From contig JAHHIM010000009.1 of the NCBI GenBank assembly GCA_019358915.1, positions 81,223 to 145,222 on the forward strand: a stretch of 64,000 bases of DNA. The letters run 5' to 3'. The notes below the pieces were generated by a model, which was given only the letters and a program-made list of their open reading frames with translations, searched no databases and was not told the origin of the DNA. The DNA is from Trichormus sp. ATA11-4-KO1 (GTDB lineage: Bacteria > Cyanobacteriota > Cyanobacteriia > Cyanobacteriales > Nostocaceae). Shown here piece after piece: positions 20,698 to 28,606 of this stretch (its first letter is position 1; every line of letters begins with the position of its first letter). The translations under genes and the position numbers were made by a program.

Positions 20698-20737
20698 TAA
20701 TTCGTAATTCGTAATTCGTAATTCGTAATTCGTAATT
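20698..20737 (+). repeat. Tandem heptamer repeat (TAATTCG)x5-6
   Basis: taattcgtaattcgtaattcgtaattcgtaattcgtaatt. Confidence 0.9.
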
Positions 20738-21016
20738 AAAGAGGGTACAAGCCCCCACTGATTGTAACTACGTACAGCCTGGCGGCATCTGTAGGCTCTA
20801 TTATCAATTACGAATTATGTTGACCACTGTGGGATAGTGGCAGGTATCATAGACCAGATGTGTTTGGTAGAGCAACACAAGAATATACTGACTCCAGTTC
20901 CAGGCTCCTCAATCAGCGATCGCCATTAAAGAATTAAGAAAATTATCAGGCAGTGACGACAATGGCGCTAAACTCTTATGACGAATCAGCCCTTAGAGTC
21001 AACTTGATAGCTTCTG

Positions 21017-21338
21017 ATGAAATTAGCCGATATCCTCAAAGACTCAAATTACAAGCTGTCGCAGTTTACGATCGCTGAAATTGAGCAGTTAGAGCAAACA
21101 ATTACCCTCAAGGCAACCAAAAACGGTGAGGTTCCTTATACGGTTTGTTTGGTGCGCCAAAAAGCAATTAAGCTCACGCCAGAGGAGTCAATCCGGCAAT
21201 TATATTTACGAGTTTTGCGCGATCGCTTGCACTATCCCCTCAGTCGCATTCAGGTTGAGTATGGGGTGAATTTTGGGCGCGAGGTGAAACGGGCAGACAT
21301 CGTGGTCATGGATAAAGACCGTCCCAACACAGTTTATA
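21017..21338 (+). pseudogene. 5' fragment of a restriction-modification gene (HSDR_N-type nuclease domain of an R/M fusion), truncated by an IS remnant
   Basis: CLVRQKAIKLTPEESIRQLYL...IQVEYGVNFGREVKRADIVV is typical of HSDR_N_2. Homology ends where the IS terminus begins, and no methyltransferase domain follows. Confidence 0.75.
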
Positions 21339-21620
21339 GAACCCATTTGACATCTAAGAAGAGGCTGCAAGCCTCTGAACCATTAGCCGAATAAAACAAA
21401 GATTAACTTTGGCGGTCGCATTAGCTAAAGTTCGCTCAAAGTTCTTGACGAGAATTTTGCATCTCTCCATCCAAGCATTTGACCGTTCAATCACCCACCT
21501 GGCTGCAACCGGAACAAACCCAGATAGTCGTCAAGCGAGATGCCTGCTTTGGAGACTGTTTCACTCGTTTGAGAACTTGTTTTCCCCCTTCTCGTTCACC
21601 CATACTGGCAGATGTGACCC
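21337..21620 (-). mobile_element. Chimeric remnant of IS5-family transposases plus one terminal sequence
   Basis: Minus strand reads VTSASMGEREGGKQVLKRVKQSPKQASRLTTIWV, then in another frame SGFVPVAARWVIERSNAWMERCKILVKNFERTLANATAKVNLCFIRLMVQRLAASS* (RW.IERS.AW signature), ending ATGTCAAATGGGTTCTA. Confidence 0.8.
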
Positions 21621-22290
21621 TGACCCGGCTGAATATTACCAGCCAAAACAGCAAAAAGTTATGACAATCATGCGTCAGTCTGGTCTTTGTATTGGCAATG
21701 TTGTCTCACTTGCAAAGCGCAAATTTCAGCCTGATAAACAAGGCACTTTTAATTACATTGAAATTGGGAATCTCAACGGAGAAGGCTTTGCTAATAGTGA
21801 AGTAGTAGCAATGGAAGAAGTCCCCAGTCGAGCGCAGTGGATTGTCAAAACTAACGATGTAATTACGTCAACCGTTCGCCCCATTCGCCGACTCTCAGCC
21901 CTGATTGAACCAGAGCAAAACAATTACATTTGTTCATCTGGTTTTGCTGTTCTCAAACCAACCAAAATAGAGCCAGAAGTTTTACAAGTTTATTTGCGAT
22001 CGCCCATTGTATGCGAAATCCTTGATCTTCATACAACTGCCAGTATGTATCCGGCAATTTCCACTGAAGACTTGTTAAATATTCCGATCACGTTGCCGAA
22101 AGAATCTACTCGCCAGAAAATCACAGAAAAGGTCAGAGCATCTCGCAAAGCGCGGGAGCAATCTAAACAACTGCTAGAAATTGCTAAAACTGGAGTAGAA
22201 CGGGCAATTGAGACTGATGAAGCCGCAGCCACAACTTGGATGAACCAGCAACTTGAAGCATTAGGCATCACCCTAACTGCTACCACTTAA
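21621..22290 (+). pseudogene. 3' part of a restriction-modification specificity (HsdS-like) subunit
   Basis: AEYYQPK, FNYIEIG, PSRAQWIVKTNDVITSTVRP, CSSGFAVL, SMYPAI, C-terminal helix SKQLLEIAKTGVERAIE. The N-terminus is replaced by IS sequence. Confidence 0.8.
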
Positions 22291-22307
22291 ACCATCTGGG
22301 AGTAATC

Positions 22308-22550
22308 ATGAAAGCACTTAAAGTTATGGCAACGATTAACGATCAGGGACAACTAACTTTAGATTATCCGCTTTTAACTGATAAAAATAGCCGAGTAGAA
22401 GTCATTGTGCTAATCCCTGAAGTAGAAGAAGTTCTGGATGATTCATCTCAAGCAGAAGTCTTAGCAGATTTCCAGCAAGCTTGGCACGAAGCCATGACTG
22501 GGCAAACTATCCCGGTGGCTCAACTTTGGGAAGGTCTTGAAGATGGTTGA
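22308..22550 (+). CDS. Putative type II TA antitoxin (RelN-like), orphan
   Basis: MKALKVMATINDQGQLTLD.PL...RVEVIVLIPE...QAWHEAMTGQTIPVAQLWEG. No toxin follows; the next repeat starts immediately. Confidence 0.65.
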   Translation: MKALKVMATINDQGQLTLDYPLLTDKNSRVEVIVLIPEVEEVLDDSSQAEVLADFQQAWHEAMTGQTIPVAQLWEGLEDG

Positions 22551-22643
22551 TCAGCTGAAGCCACAGCAACAACTTGGATAAACCAGCAAGTTGAAGCTAT
22601 TAGCATTAATTTATCAAATTAAACTTAATTTAATGGAGGCATA

Positions 22644-22853
22644 ATGTCTGAAATTACTTTAAACCCAGAACAACTCAAGGAAATCTTGAAAAGCGCGATC
22701 GTCGAATTGATTCGTGATAACCGTGAGGAAGTCTCTGAATTTTTGACGGAAATTATTGAAGACATAGCAATGGAACGGGCGATCGCAGAAGGTGAAACAA
22801 CTGACCTGATTAGCCGCGACTCCATTTTTCAACTTTTGGAGCCGAAATCGTGA
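22644..22853 (+). CDS. Putative antitoxin
   Basis: Good RBS (GGAGG); EIIEDIAMERAIAEGE motif; GTGA overlap with a RelE-like gene. Confidence 0.7.
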   Translation: MSEITLNPEQLKEILKSAIVELIRDNREEVSEFLTEIIEDIAMERAIAEGETTDLISRDSIFQLLEPKS

Positions 22854-23116
22854 AAGTCGAGTTCAGAAAAAGCTTTGAAAAGGATTTGGGTAAGATTTAA
22901 GATGAGGACTTGCTCCTGAGAATTAAAACTGTAATAGAAGAAATGGAAACTGCTGAAAGTCTCTTGAAGATCAGCAACATCAAAAAACTTAAGGCAGATG
23001 GAAATTACTACCGTATCCGAGTTGGTGACTATCGAATTGGTTTTGCCGAAGACGAAAATATAATTACCTTTGTTCGTGTATTACATCGCAAGGAAATATA
23101 TCGATATTTTCCATAA
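22850..23116 (+). pseudogene. RelE/ParE-family toxin with an in-frame TAA at 22898-22900
   Basis: GTG at 22850: MKVEFRKSFEKDLGKI*DEDLLLRIK...IKKLK...YYRIRVGDYRIG...RVLHRKEIYRYFP. Confidence 0.85.
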
Positions 23117-23233
23117 TGAATAACTACTGCTAGAAATTGCTAAAACACAAGTAGAACAGGCGATAGAGACTGATGAAGCGATCGCCACAACTTGGATAAA
23201 TCAGCAACTTGAAGTCTTGGGGGTAACGCTGAC

Positions 23234-23815
23234 ATGATGATGCAGGCTGAAGCAAAGAAAATCTATACACCCGAAGAGTATCTCGATTTTGAGGTGAATT
23301 CAGATATTCGGCATGAGTATATCAATGGAGAAATCATCCCTATGACTGGCGGCACTCCCGAACATAATGAAATTGCCAGTATTCTCAATGCCGCCTTAAG
23401 AGTCAGTTTGAAAGGGAAACCGTACAGTATTTTTGTAGCGGATCAACGGCTTTGGATTCCCAATCGCACGCTTTATACCTACCCGGATGTCATGGTTGTC
23501 CCCCGCCCACTTGAACGACAACAGGGACGAACTGATACAATTACTAACCCGGTGATGATCGCCGAAGTGCTTTCAAAATCAACCAAAAGCTACGATAGAG
23601 ATGAAAAATTTTCAGCGTATCGTACCATTCCAACATTTCAAGAGTATTTATTGATTGATCAATATACTGCTCATGTTGAGCAATACTCCAAAGCTGACTC
23701 CCATAGATGGATCTTTACTGAATATGACGATACAGAATCTTATATTTCACTCTCATCGATTCCCTTTGAAATTCGTTTAGCAGATATCTATGAAAATATT
23801 GAATTTGAGCCATAG
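23234..23815 (+). CDS. Uma2 family (DUF820) endonuclease-like protein
   Basis: YTPEEYL...RHEYINGEI..MTGGT..HN, YPDVMV, IAEVLS.ST..YDR..KF..YR. Confidence 0.92.
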   Translation: MMMQAEAKKIYTPEEYLDFEVNSDIRHEYINGEIIPMTGGTPEHNEIASILNAALRVSLKGKPYSIFVADQRLWIPNRTLYTYPDVMVVPRPLERQQGRTDTITNPVMIAEVLSKSTKSYDRDEKFSAYRTIPTFQEYLLIDQYTAHVEQYSKADSHRWIFTEYDDTESYISLSSIPFEIRLADIYENIEFEP

Positions 23816-23920
23816 TGGAAATTGCTAAACCACAAGTAGAACGGGCGATAGAGACTGATGAAGATAAGGCAACCACTTGGATAAATCAACAGCTTAAAGC
23901 ATTAAATGTTGAAATAAGAG

Positions 23921-24181
23921 ATGAAAGAAATTCGCTTTAGCGATCATGCTCAATTAAAAATGGAGGTTTTAGCGAGTCATGAAATAAGCGTCGATCCCAA
24001 CTTTGTAATAGAGACAGTGCGATCGCCAGACAAGCTAGAAACTGGTGAAGTGGATAAACTGATTGCACAAAAGCGTTTAGACGAAAATTTAGTGCTTCGA
24101 GTCGTTTACCGAGAATTCAATGCTTTCATTTTGATCGTCACCCTTTATCCTGGCAGGAGGTCTAGATATGAAAAAGATTAG
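23921..24181 (+). CDS. DUF4258-like putative toxin
   Basis: IRFSDHAQLKM...LRVVYRE...IVTLYPGRRSRY; overlaps a DUF2283-like gene. Confidence 0.7.
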   Translation: MKEIRFSDHAQLKMEVLASHEISVDPNFVIETVRSPDKLETGEVDKLIAQKRLDENLVLRVVYREFNAFILIVTLYPGRRSRYEKD

Positions 24182-24362
24182 CTACAGCAAAGATGTTGAT
24201 GCTCTATTAATTGAACTTTCCAATGAGCCAATTGCCTATGCTGAAGATGAAGGACAAGTGATTTTGCATTATTCTCAAGATGCCAAGCTAGTTTTAGTTG
24301 AAATACTAGACTTTCGACGCTTGATGTCAAATGAAACTGTGACTGCATTGTTAGCCTCCTGA
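24168..24362 (+). CDS. DUF2283-like putative antitoxin
   Basis: MKKISYSKDVDALLIEL...VILHY....LV.VEILD. Confidence 0.75.
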   Translation: MKKISYSKDVDALLIELSNEPIAYAEDEGQVILHYSQDAKLVLVEILDFRRLMSNETVTALLAS

Positions 24363-24464
24363 GAAAATTGCAAAAATAGGAGTAGAACAGGCGATAGAGA
24401 CTGATGAAGCGACAGCCACAACTGGGATAAACCAACAACTAAAAGCCTTTGAGGTAGAAATGCC

Positions 24465-24761
24465 ATGAAGATTACTGCAATAGATTTGCCAATGGATCAG
24501 ATTCGTGAGTTTTGTTACAAGTGGCAAGTTACCGAATTTGCCTTGTTCGGCTCCATTTTACGCGATGACTTTCGCCCCGAAAGCGATATTGATGTGCTGC
24601 TCACCTTTTCTGCAACTGCGAAACGGGGCTTAAGCGAAACTCTGCAAATGCGCGATCAATTGCAAGCTATTTTCAACCGCCCTGTAGATTTGATTGTAAA
24701 AACCGCGATCAAGCGCAGTGAAAACTGGCTCAGACGTAAAAATATTTTGAATCCGCACTAG
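24465..24761 (+). CDS. Minimal nucleotidyltransferase (MNT) antitoxin
   Basis: FALFGSILRDDFRPESDIDVL...RPVDL; the C-terminus may be frameshifted. Confidence 0.85.
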   Translation: MKITAIDLPMDQIREFCYKWQVTEFALFGSILRDDFRPESDIDVLLTFSATAKRGLSETLQMRDQLQAIFNRPVDLIVKTAIKRSENWLRRKNILNPH

Positions 24762-24767
24762 TCATCT

Positions 24768-24840
24768 ATGCCGCGTGACCAAGAATCTCTGATCGACATC
24801 GCCAATGCCATCAGGCGCAGCTTACGCTATGCAGATGGGG
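24768..24840 (+). pseudogene. 5' fragment of a HEPN/DUF86 toxin truncated by a repeat element
   Basis: MPRDQESLIDIANAIRR follows the MNT gene; sequence then switches to a CTTTGCGC repeat/MITE-like end. Confidence 0.65.
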
Positions 24841-24844
24841 TTTT

Positions 24845-24912
24845 TTCTTTGTACCTTTGCGCCTTTGCGCCTTTGCGCGAGATAAATTCATATTTTCAAT
24901 CAGCAACGCCAA
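24845..24912. mobile_element. MITE/REP-like element end (...TCAGCAACGCC family)
   Basis: ctttgcgcctttgcgcctttgcgcgagataaattcatattttcaatcagcaacgcc; similar to 49015-49064 and to the terminus at 53632-53713. Confidence 0.6.
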
Positions 24913-24999: not shown

Positions 25000-25245
25000 C
25001 TAAATTTCCACCAAAGAGCGAACACTTAAAATTTCATGATTTCGCAGTGGTTTAATATCAGATATGGGAACAATGACAACAGCTATTGATTCACCAGTTG
25101 CATTGAATACTTCTAAAACACATCCTTGTTCACCATTACTAGGATGAGGAACAAAATCAATTAAAGTTGCTACATCACCTTTTTTTAATTGATATTCATC
25201 TAAGTCACGATTTAAAGCGACACGCTGATATAGTTCAAAGTTCAT
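25000..25245 (-). CDS. DUF4926-like protein
   Basis: MNFELYQRVALNRDL....LKKGDVATLIDFVPHP..GEQGCVLEVFNA.GE; ATG at 25245. Confidence 0.75.
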   Translation of the reverse strand: MNFELYQRVALNRDLDEYQLKKGDVATLIDFVPHPSNGEQGCVLEVFNATGESIAVVIVPISDIKPLRNHEILSVRSLVEI

Positions 25246-25576
25246 TTGCAGACTCCTTGTTAGGTTTGAGGGTGATAAACTGAAACTTACCGTCAACAGC
25301 CCTTTGCAGCCAAACTGTAATCACTGCTAGGTTTCGCTGGTTTACCCCGATTAATTCACCAGTAACGCGATAGAACACCCCATATTCATTATCTCTATCT
25401 TGTATTGCTTCTGTTGAATCTGCCAGTTGCCGAATTGCTACTTTCAATAGTTCTGGGTTGTCTTGTGTAAATCCAGCTTGGGCGAGAAACTTTGATTGAT
25501 CGTCTTGTTCTCTCGGTACTAATAAGTAGCGGGTGATTTTTTCGTCGGCAATAATTGCATCAGGGGGAATTTTCAT
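25235..25576 (-). CDS. DUF6883-like protein (putative toxin partner of DUF4926)
   Basis: AIIADEKITRYLL...SKFLAQAGF...NEYG..Y...G.N...VITVW...FITLKP; overlaps the downstream gene. Confidence 0.7.
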   Translation of the reverse strand: MKIPPDAIIADEKITRYLLVPREQDDQSKFLAQAGFTQDNPELLKVAIRQLADSTEAIQDRDNEYGVFYRVTGELIGVNQRNLAVITVWLQRAVDGKFQFITLKPNKESANEL

Positions 25577-25622: not shown

Positions 25623-26258
25623 TTAAGTTAAGTCTCTTCTAATACGAGATAGTGCCTGTTGTAAACCTTCAGAGTGAATCCAACCAACAAAACCGCCGTA
25701 AATCATTCTGTCATTGCGATCGCCTAAAAAAACATGGTCAACACCAACGGGGTTTTTCCATGTTCTCACTACAGTTCCATCCCTCAGCCTCATGATGGGA
25801 TGAGAACTTACAAAATCTCTGTGGTGTGCGCGAGTCATTCCAGGAACACTTTCTAAAATGGCGATCGCTTCATTTGCATCATCTGTGGTACTAGAATTAA
25901 CCACCGTTGCACAACCGCATCCGTCCGTTACAGTCGTCTTGAGCCTATCTTTCATGTCGCCGTCGAATAGCGATAAAGACTCAATCTCTTCTAGCAATTT
26001 GCCATGTGGTTCAGTCTGTCGGCGCTGGCAGTAAATTTCTGTCAGAAAATCTTCTAAACTAACTTTAGCTAAAGCATCAGTAATCAAACCTGTCAGCCCC
26101 AAAACAGCAATTCCACCCAGCATCCCCGCAGGGCCACCCAGAAATGCTAAAGCTGCGGTAATAGCAGCAGCACCTGTAAAACCTGTAGTTGCCATTGTGA
26201 TTACCAAAATTACCCCAGGCAGACCCAATGCAGCTACTTTTTTGACGACTTCATCCAT
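25623..26258 (-). CDS. Hypothetical membrane protein with Gly/Ala-rich hydrophobic N-terminus
   Basis: ORF with probable start MDEVVKKVAALGLPG at 26258. Confidence 0.65.
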   Translation of the reverse strand: MDEVVKKVAALGLPGVILVITMATTGFTGAAAITAALAFLGGPAGMLGGIAVLGLTGLITDALAKVSLEDFLTEIYCQRRQTEPHGKLLEEIESLSLFDGDMKDRLKTTVTDGCGCATVVNSSTTDDANEAIAILESVPGMTRAHHRDFVSSHPIMRLRDGTVVRTWKNPVGVDHVFLGDRNDRMIYGGFVGWIHSEGLQQALSRIRRDLT

Positions 26259-26417
26259 TTCCTGCCACCTCAAGACAAGATTTACTCTGATGGTAGGGGT
26301 CACGCCAGTAGGAATACCATGCACCCATACCCATAATCTCGAACAGTCCATTTTGAATCTTGATGTAAATCCGTGGAATTAGACGCTGTTTTTGCTTTCG
26401 TGAAAGTTTCGTCAGTC

Positions 26418-26632
26418 AAAGTTACATTTTGTGAATATTTCACTAAAAATTGCGTCGCTTGACCGCTACCACAACATAAATCTAAAACGTGAGTATCTGA
26501 GTTAATTATTAAACCTTGTAAAGGTAGTTGGCGAAAACGGACTTCACCGCTTACAGTCAAGGCTGCTAACCAGGCGATCGCATCATATAGCCACTAATAA
26601 CGGTAACTTCAATCTCTGAAAATTGTTGCCAT
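26418..26632 (-). pseudogene. Class I SAM methyltransferase 5' remnant (two nonsense codons, truncated)
   Basis: MATIFRD*SYRY*WLYDAIAWLAALTVSGEVRFRQLPLQG...VLDLCCGSGQATQFLVKYSQNVT, after which homology is lost. Confidence 0.8.
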
Positions 26633-28048: not shown

Positions 28049-28606
28049 ATGACTCAACTAAAACCTCAACTCACACTACAAGAATTCCTCGCCCTACCAT
28101 CCGGGGATATTACCTACGAATTAGTTGACGGCGAAGCAAAAGCAAAAATGGCACCAAAAAGATTCCATTCCAGATTAACCCTTGCTATTAGTCAACTTCT
28201 CATACTATGGGCACAAAATCGTGGTGAGATTGGTATCGAATGGGCAGTTACTTTAAAACGCCAAGGTCGCGATTGGGTTCCCGTACCAGACTTACTTTAT
28301 ATTTCCTATTCTCGCCTTTCTAATGAAGTAATTGAGGATGAAGCTTGTCCCATACCTCCAGACTTAGCCATTGAAATTATCTCACCCGACCAAACCTTTG
28401 GACAAATGAGCGCCAAAGCCACAGATTACCTCGATGCTGGTGTGATGAGAGTTTGGGTTGTGGATGCAAGAGCTAAAACAGTCACGATTTTTTATCCTGA
28501 TACCAGACCTCAAACAAAAACTGGTGTAGATAGTTTAGAAGATTCTCTATTTGAAGGGTTGCAAATTACACCACAACAAATTTTTCAACAAGCGGGAATT
28601 CCTTAG
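28049..28606 (+). CDS. Uma2 family endonuclease-like protein
   Basis: LTLQEFLALP...YELVDG, PVPDLLY, PPDLAIEIISPDQ, YLDAGV.RVWVVD. Confidence 0.92.
   Translation: MTQLKPQLTLQEFLALPSGDITYELVDGEAKAKMAPKRFHSRLTLAISQLLILWAQNRGEIGIEWAVTLKRQGRDWVPVPDLLYISYSRLSNEVIEDEACPIPPDLAIEIISPDQTFGQMSAKATDYLDAGVMRVWVVDARAKTVTIFYPDTRPQTKTGVDSLEDSLFEGLQITPQQIFQQAGIP

Follow-up and report, generated by a model that had tools for sequence, protein, structure and literature searches.

How do toxin-antitoxin (TA) and defence-like genes come to pile up behind a restriction-modification (RM) gene with no mobile element beside them, a situation usually left unexplained? We approached this question through a 64,000-nucleotide (nt) stretch of Trichormus sp. 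ATA11-4-KO1 (contig JAHHIM010000009.1, positions 81,223 to 145,222; hereafter the window), in which the 3' end of a broken RM gene recurs as diverged direct repeats between small TA and Uma2 genes. Across related cyanobacteria, such arrays draw on a small pool of reusable cassettes with fixed junctions, which follow one another in nearly every order and are joined through chimeric copies of the repeat. We consider it probable that rare long target duplication founded the cassettes, that ordinary homologous recombination reshuffles them, and that events at highly iterated palindrome 1 (HIP1) octamers move and trim the element as a whole.

In relatives, the parent of the repeats is a single open reading frame (ORF) of 1,155-1,197 amino acids (aa) with HSDR_N_2, N6 methylase and HsdS domains, a fused restriction-modification-specificity (R-M-S) gene. 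In the window genome, what is left of it is codons 1-107 plus some 220 codons at the 3' end, separated by 290 nt of foreign sequence; the middle ~830 codons are absent and the gene is broken. The gene that the earlier note called HsdS-like does carry an HsdS part, but it is not a whole gene, being the 3' remnant of this fusion. The last ~110 nt of the R-M-S gene, encoding a conserved helix after the second target-recognition domain (TRD2), are nearly identical across alleles, and it is this tail that recurs. From left to right, the element in the window comprises:

20916-20923 (no strand): HIP1 octamer GCGATCGC, marking where the element begins on the left, 100 nt ahead of the R-M-S start
21017-21336 (+): 5' remnant of the R-M-S gene, codons 1-107 (HSDR_N_2, E = 2.7e-12); the ORF continues to 21394
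21337-21627 (no strand): foreign 290-nt piece in place of the R-M-S middle (~830 codons), from sequence comparison
21628-22290 (+): 3' remnant of the R-M-S gene, with TRD2 and the conserved C-terminal helix (Methylase_S, E = 6.6e-5)
22166-22290 (+): tail copy T0, the end of the R-M-S gene (repeat search and genome profile)
22308-22550 (+): RelN-family antitoxin (NF050107, 109.5 bits, cut-off 70), its toxin deleted with 22543-22555 left
22556-22623 (+): tail copy T1, 3' half only (deletion scar), with the end type that goes with the RelB-like cassette
22644-22853 (+): RelB-like antitoxin, intact (PF25734)
22850-23116 (+): ParE/RelE toxin, intact (PF05016)
23122-23237 (+): tail copy T2, with a HIP1 octamer; its stop overlaps the Uma2 start
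23234-23815 (+): Uma2 (DUF820) putative nuclease, subtype A (PF05685, E = 1.9e-35; PADLOC PDC-S03)
23816-23939 (+): tail copy T3 (repeat search and genome profile)
23921-24181 (+): DUF4258-like gene, 86 aa (a lead from the nearest Atlas clusters only)
24168-24362 (+): DUF2283 gene (PF10049)
24363-24468 (+): tail copy T4 (repeat search and genome profile); its stop overlaps the MNT start
24465-24842 (+): MNT nucleotidyltransferase (PF01909) and a HepT gene truncated after its first 75 nt by a repeated element

A direct-repeat search found five tail copies within 22166-24468, four of about 105-112 nt and one half copy. The ~112-nt family starts at 22166, 23122, 23807 and 24353, the later three copies being 81, 68 and 70% identical to the first, and the fifth copy, at 22556, is a 3' half only (84% identical to the first over 51 nt). 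A profile made from the four longer copies gave exactly five matches in the 5.97-Mb genome (E = 2e-31 to 3.5e-8; next E = 0.13). Since these matches are confined to the array, dispersal of the repeat over the genome, unlinked to hsdS, is ruled out, and the proposal that the tail of the HsdS-like gene recurs four more times is borne out, together with its quoted translations and the assignment of the repeats to the conserved 3' end of the specificity domain. The orphan tails, those beyond the end of the parent gene, start 0-5 nt past the preceding stop, within the few base pairs originally described, and end at the next start or within about 20 nt of it. At T1, the first 13 nt of the RelN toxin are fused to mid-tail; this half copy is a deletion scar, and the RelN toxin was lost in the same deletion.

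The cargo first listed for the array was right for the RelN-like gene, the antitoxin with RelE, Uma2, DUF2283 and MNT; the HEPN gene proved to be only a 75-nt HepT stump, and DUF4258 is just a lead. Pfam gave no match for the 86-aa protein of 23921-24181, and DUF4258 occurs in 11-33% of the members of its nearest Atlas clusters. Together with the DUF2283 gene it forms an intact, putative TA pair. The MNT protein has 98 aa and a different C-terminus in the window compared with 104 aa in the sister species (G001), and two of the four TA pairs of the window array are broken.

We searched for related arrays with a 43-position tail-peptide profile, which matched 122 of the 389 family genomes, at least twice in 48 of them, and 43 of 401 genomes drawn across the phylum, in at least 12 families. 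The window and 92 fetched loci, picked from the best and multi-match hits rather than at random, were mapped as a set of 93, in which single tails account for 42 loci, two tails for 28, three for 17, four for 3, five for 2 and six for 1. These arrays occupy many different chromosomal sites. Among 19 further tail loci, mostly from other families, several combine two or three tails with RelN, Uma2 and MNT/HEPN cargo, and two arrays stand behind intact parents (G750 and G503). Three genomes of a distant class hold one such tail each, on a separate HsdS-type gene.

Six main cassettes recur among these loci: the RelN pair, RelB-like/RelE, two Uma2 subtypes (UmaA and UmaB), MNT/HepT and DUF4258-like/DUF2283. 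Each meets the following tail at its own fixed place. Relative to column 1 of that tail, and among the matches listed, the offset is -5 for RelE, +10 for DUF2283, -22/-23 for HepT, 0/+1 for the RelN toxin (+12 in two loci) and, in most cases, +9 for UmaA and UmaB; the distance from the preceding tail to the cassette start is also constant per cassette in these matches (range 113-143). With cassette labels assigned automatically, 26 of the 30 ordered neighbour pairs of different core cassettes occur in the 93 loci, in both directions, and none of the six self pairs does; in another family, G750 carries two Uma2 paralogues in tandem. The 35 multi-tail loci display 26 orders, some of which include remnants fused by deletion, and permuted arrays are also found in near-complete genomes of 1-10 contigs (G143, G208, G317, G394, G399 and G403). 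Arrays thus vary among relatives in cassette number and order, as had been predicted. Single junctions of an hsdS tail with a cassette, likewise predicted, occur for five of the six cassette types directly behind an R-M-S gene and for the sixth in locus L060. What does not survive is the idea that every unit is the tail of a fresh hsdS allele stacked once with its neighbour; the pool is small and reused, with fixed junctions and chimeric tails.

The chimeric nature of the tails is seen in their alignment columns. Tails that share only their upstream cassette are alike up to about column 20, and those that share only their downstream cassette are alike from about column 91. Per-column linkage (43 tails with both neighbours known) gave the same picture: strong linkage extends to column 18 for the upstream cassette and begins at column 95 for the downstream cassette. 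Columns 19-50 are without significant linkage, and some weaker downstream linkage appears here and there in columns 51-86. This pattern along the columns shows that tails are chimeras in which exchange was spread over the core rather than fixed at a single base, and it supports the earlier suggestion of recombination at the conserved tail. TRD2 varies among alleles, and the type of its end does not predict the first cassette, the same type preceding different ones.

Comparisons between genomes indicate turnover and transfer of cassettes. At the same site, the sister species has RelB/E, the RelN pair, UmaA and MNT/HepT, and the window has RelN, RelB/E, UmaA, the DUF4258-like pair and MNT. Identity between the two is 96.5-98.2% for host genes, 95-99% for RelB/E and UmaA, 93% for MNT and 87% for RelN; because RelN falls this far below the host genes, the RelN cassettes were acquired separately and not moved in place. 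Between UmaA and MNT, the sister species has a single tail where the window has a tail, the DUF4258-like/DUF2283 pair and another tail, indicating a gain or a loss. The window RelN gene is 97.5% identical at the nt level to a copy in G289 (L061), with long host genes at 71-81%, and for the DUF4258-like/DUF2283 pair, G297, G287 and G239 hold copies at 96-97% identity, with host genes at 79-85%. Judged by these identities, cassettes cross genus borders. A full or half copy of the latter pair occurs in 6 of 389 genomes, always beside tails (a seventh match covers 32 nt), and metagenome contigs from other organisms carry further junction orders.

The repeats had been described as keeping an open frame. 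The frames in the window are indeed open, but they are inherited rather than maintained. Among 55 full orphan tails, 24 are broken (14 by stops and 10 by frameshifts), and rare changes in orphan tails fall on codon positions 1, 2 and 3 in 25, 17 and 14 cases; this frequency of breakage and even spread rule out coding selection on orphan tails. First tails are better kept. An ORF of at least 1000 aa ends at the first tail in 22 of 90 full-length first tails, and breaks were found in 0 of these 22 and in 5 of 37 and 4 of 31 of the other first tails; differences at codon positions 1 and 2 amount to 0.062 in first tails vs 0.108-0.193 in orphans. Strict newest-first accretion does not follow from these data, since decay among the orphan tails has no significant relation to position (rho = 0.20, p = 0.14). 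The tail 3' end carries a purine-rich stretch and often a stop that overlaps the cassette start, and for these reasons is plausibly a ribosome-binding site.

We also examined the HIP1 octamer at the left edge, which is exact in 11 of the 14 loci that a script selected and, by inspection, in 14 of 19. Six unrelated upstream flanks meet the element there, identity between flank groups changing from ~0.2 to 1.0 at the octamer; in the window, ~15-20 nt upstream, beyond the octamer, are common to three other-genus loci. HIP1 occurs once per 1.2 kb in this genome. Near tail column 57 it is present in 24 of 73 orphan tails vs 6 of 92 first tails, the loci being related and not independent. At the right end, HIP1 is the exact point where some last tails give way to host DNA, in two types of junction, but not where many others do. 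In L114 (G217:C1:7821701 onward), a deletion of the R-M-S gene has as its exact end points the left-edge HIP1 and a HIP1 within TRD2, and several other loci keep a remnant that starts at the same residue (~1108); because the script listing of such fragments came out empty, G217 is the single case of a parent fragment starting at an internal HIP1.

At least five other TA loci in this genome (G000) sit between direct repeats of 75-146 nt, nearly all with HIP1 (gene names by inspection):

C10:21878-22773
C10:88041-88661
C18:962-2053
C24:47258-48130
C65:260175-261946

The C18 and C24 repeats duplicate the 3' end of the upstream gene, and three repeats at C65 separate TA pairs, forming a second small array. 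Since other TA loci lie between such similar repeats, the founding step seems not to be special to the R-M-S gene.

In the mechanism that we propose, a TA or Uma2 gene behind one allele would be bracketed by a second tail through one illegitimate event per cassette, giving a cassette that consists of the tail 3' part, the gene or genes, the fixed junction and the tail 5' part. Homologous crossover between two tails in their ~70-nt core, presumably by RecA-type recombination, would then insert, delete or reorder cassettes, with partners on the same chromosome, on chromosome copies or in DNA taken up from other species. Reordering could pass through excised circles or through linear unequal crossover or duplication followed by deletion, and the data fit both routes. 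The tail 3' end would be retained for the ribosome-binding site and start of the cassette, TA addiction may help arrays to outlast the R-M-S gene, and HIP1-to-HIP1 events would relocate and trim the whole element.

Several points weigh against this proposal. Fixed junctions, chimeric tails, near-complete neighbour permutation, cross-genus identity and orphan decay are products of recombination rather than events, and from them we infer the enzymes, rates and intermediates. Efficient RecA recombination generally needs more homology than a ~70-nt core at ~80-85% identity offers, and exchange may accordingly be very infrequent. The six cassettes have their junctions clustered within 35 nt of the tail start, which purely random founding does not predict; among the matches listed, other clades show junctions scattered between -48 and about +78. 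Counts over the mapped loci are not independent events, given the relatedness of the loci and a selection that partly favoured those with several matches. Promoter-like sites in the tails do not exceed chance (7 found vs 9.5 expected), which speaks against a promoter inside the tail. Finally, a recombinase encoded elsewhere in the genome may act in trans, as 18 tyrosine-recombinase matches lie over the cut-off outside the array (serine recombinases were not searched genome-wide).

Such a site-specific recombinase, an integron integrase or another tyrosine recombinase using the tail as its site, would account for compact, fixed junctions right after stops, which resemble those of integron cassettes, and the genome does hold a truncated intI on C5 beside its other tyrosine recombinases. 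We nevertheless regard this explanation as very unlikely. In a pattern search for attC boxes, full orphan tails had the R'' box in 0 of 54 cases and R' in 1 of 54, and mean folding z-scores of 54 orphan tails gave no hairpin signal (-0.03 for the top strand and -0.21 for the bottom strand; z below -2 in 7 and 8 of them, vs 2 and 2 of 89 first tails), which rules out the tail as an attC-type site; no single crossover column was seen either. The tail called an attachment site in the earlier note is one as a homology target but not as a specific site. The absence of a visible recombinase beside the array, also noted there, extends across loci: recombinase families were found in none of 136 neighbouring proteins, a subset of the ORFs near tails that includes a few insertion sequence (IS) transposases, and PF00589 had no match on the window's contig. 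The C5 intI (C5:123520-124158), on a contig other than that of the array, is 5'-truncated, lacks the first ~96 profile positions, and is the only intI over the TIGR02249 cut-off. TA-like genes lie upstream of it on the opposite strand, a simple pattern search found no attC beside it, and a second, internally deleted intI copy is present at C25:7727-8089.

We judged three other explanations in the same way. Crossovers might be directed to HIP1 or near-HIP1 sites in the tail by an unknown cyanobacterial activity that also joins the element to host DNA. The excess of the octamer in orphan tails, the left edge with its six flanks, the last tails that end at HIP1 and the G217 deletion all speak for this, as do reports that HIP1 in homology arms raises transformation and homologous integration in Synechococcus PCC 7002 (10.1101/2024.09.10.611283) and of a HIP1-flanked smtB deletion (cited in PMC13756078). 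It is still unlikely, as two thirds of orphan tails lack HIP1, linkage has no sharp switch at columns 57-64, arrays in other families mostly lack tail HIP1 and many right ends lie elsewhere; furthermore, PMC13756078 describes HIP1 as arising by substitution, so its enrichment in non-coding copies can be a by-product. Somewhat more doubtful is a series of one-way scars, in which each arriving R-M-S allele brings its own downstream gene and displaces the former end, and cassettes are never reused. This equals the model for Rhs arrays (PMC2935791), it fits the better preservation of first tails, and in one clade (L023, L033) orphan tails are fronted by a longer piece of another allele. In contrast, a cassette keeps the same following junction whatever comes next and is found at any position, reciprocal orders exist (UmaA-UmaB and UmaB-UmaA), the main clade has no TRD remnants, TRD2 type and first cassette are uncoupled, and orphan polarity is non-significant; one-way displacement may explain how cassettes were founded, not their present orders. 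An assembly artefact or chance repeats would be hardly credible. T2 and T4 do have ~30 identical bases in common, where the contigs of sequencing run X1 break, but the copies are only 68-84% alike, and arrays exist in the near-complete genomes as well as, with other junction orders, in unrelated metagenome runs. X1 contigs cover the array at even depth (1046-1214) with identical junctions, X1 being possibly the assembly's own source and hence not independent, and a loop-forming X1 contig has a depth equal to that of its flanks, which is uninformative on excision.

Founding by long target duplication followed by homologous reshuffling can be set beside several known systems. Rhs C-terminal displacement arrays, as well as those of MafB and CDI (Jackson et al., 2009; PMC2935791), are proposed to use homologous recombination with circular intermediates, no dedicated recombinase, and exchange limited by sequence identity. 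The proposed analogy to orphan rhs/cdiA modules is apt in that an intact gene is followed by strings of its conserved piece plus cargo, with no adjoining recombinase, and here too the repeat lies downstream of a parent of the same clade. The differences are that the Rhs repeat comes from the interior of its gene, as a core piece whose length varies, and the present one is the extreme 3' end; that Rhs cargo is an alternative, silent C-terminus of the parent, whereas here independent TA and Uma2 genes have their own starts at or after the tail stop; and that here junctions are fixed per cassette and arrays persist after loss of the parent. As regards the newest-proximal order of Rhs arrays, first tails here are the best preserved, and decay with position among the orphans is not significant. 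Furuta, Abe and Kobayashi (2010; PMC2853133) described RM genes inserted with long target duplications, in various naturally competent bacteria as well as Microcystis. As there, genes lie between direct repeats of more than 30 bp with no mobility gene, and an insert-free allele with one copy exists (UmaA-tail-MNT in the sister species). In those cases, however, the RM system is the insert, in single insertions; here the end of an RM gene is the target, TA and Uma2 genes are the inserts, and duplications are used again and again, giving arrays with permuted order and as many as six tails.

Integrons and CALIN (clusters of attC sites lacking integrases) hold arrays of short, co-oriented, TA-rich cassettes in variable order, each ending right after a stop, and the present arrays share these features. 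The label of an integron-like array is nevertheless untenable, as attC boxes, hairpin, linked intI or attI and a single fixed crossover are all missing. Recombination in conserved regions of the specificity domain also recalls the exchange of target-recognition domains in HsdS and Type IIG proteins (TRD1-CR1-TRD2-CR2; PMC12707154, PMC2853133); in our case, unlike in those accounts, the terminal conserved region swaps downstream content and not a protein domain. By analogy, the array would work like Rhs displacement combined with long-target-duplication insertion, yet it fails a defining feature of each, and its combinatorial evidence is unusually clear. We found no published description of cassette arrays punctuated by hsdS tails in the literature covered, with most subscription papers and supplements outside the search.

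The parent, a putative enzyme, has the domain order of fused Type IIB/IIG-like R-M-S proteins and is broken in this genome. PADLOC assigned the parent protein to PDLC03034 MTase_I, the closest solved sequence is RM.BsaXI (8w0p, E = 1.9e-21), and the MADS models MAD2 and MAD5 match it below their cut-offs. The 5' remnant in the window is 92-94% identical at the nt level to the 5' ends of long copies in five loci, the match ending at 21336-21338, and the 3' remnant is 92% identical to the G221 copy (L049) over 21628-22262. In the foreign piece, 21518-21627 is matched in part at three other places of the genome (74-85%), and 21354-21494 (-) resembles what we take to be the end of an IS transposase, Pfam having found nothing there.

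Short tandem heptamer repeats lie on both sides of the element (20698-20737 and 24843-24890); the right one, with dozens of matches genome-wide, cuts HepT. Just beyond the array is a DUF6883 and DUF4926 pair (25000-25576, -), absent at this site in the sister species, followed within 25623-26560 (-) by a 242-aa ORF without a Pfam match that overlaps a gene remnant, presumably of a methyltransferase. This gene is intact, with 207 aa, in G014, where it matches the truncated ORF of the window at 26300-26560; the sister species carries a different fragment at this position. A further Uma2 gene lies outside the array after hemH (28049-28606), and the sister species has an extra three-gene insert before it. 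G014 has DLH, the intact 207-aa gene and hemH adjacent to one another with the element absent, the only such case among 16 other-genus DLH loci; the other 15 have different neighbours. At a CHAT-gene site, a pattern search found 6 of 12 genomes, all with array remnants and no clean empty site with a single HIP1. At an EAL-gene site it found 10 of 127 genomes, of which G315 (88% complete) and G245 lack the element, a state indistinguishable from deletion. A separate clade (L023, L033, L037, L039, L087, L096, L107) has its own cassette set of PIN-type pairs and its own tail junctions, which means that tail duplication has more than one origin. Many loci at a hisS-linked site (L042, L073-L083, L088, L089, L092, L094, L097, L101, L102) have one tail, then RelB-like, RelN or GIY-YIG genes or fragments, and no further tails.

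Given a defined sequence of 70-110 nt, cassettes that form a closed set with fixed junctions, and the dozens of orders found in nature, this route of gene accumulation is directly testable in transformable cyanobacteria. The sharp HIP1 boundary and the HIP1-containing duplications at other TA loci also provide natural substrates for the question of HIP1 function. We hold it possible, though only tentatively, that the array is an integrase-free counterpart of the integron, in which the R-M-S 3' end would serve as a cross-genus landing pad that also supplies a translation start, tail-bearing circles would exit and re-enter by host recombination, and HIP1 would carry the platform to new sites. 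If true, the array would be a high-copy case of a general, undescribed route of TA insertion with ~100-nt HIP1-containing duplications.

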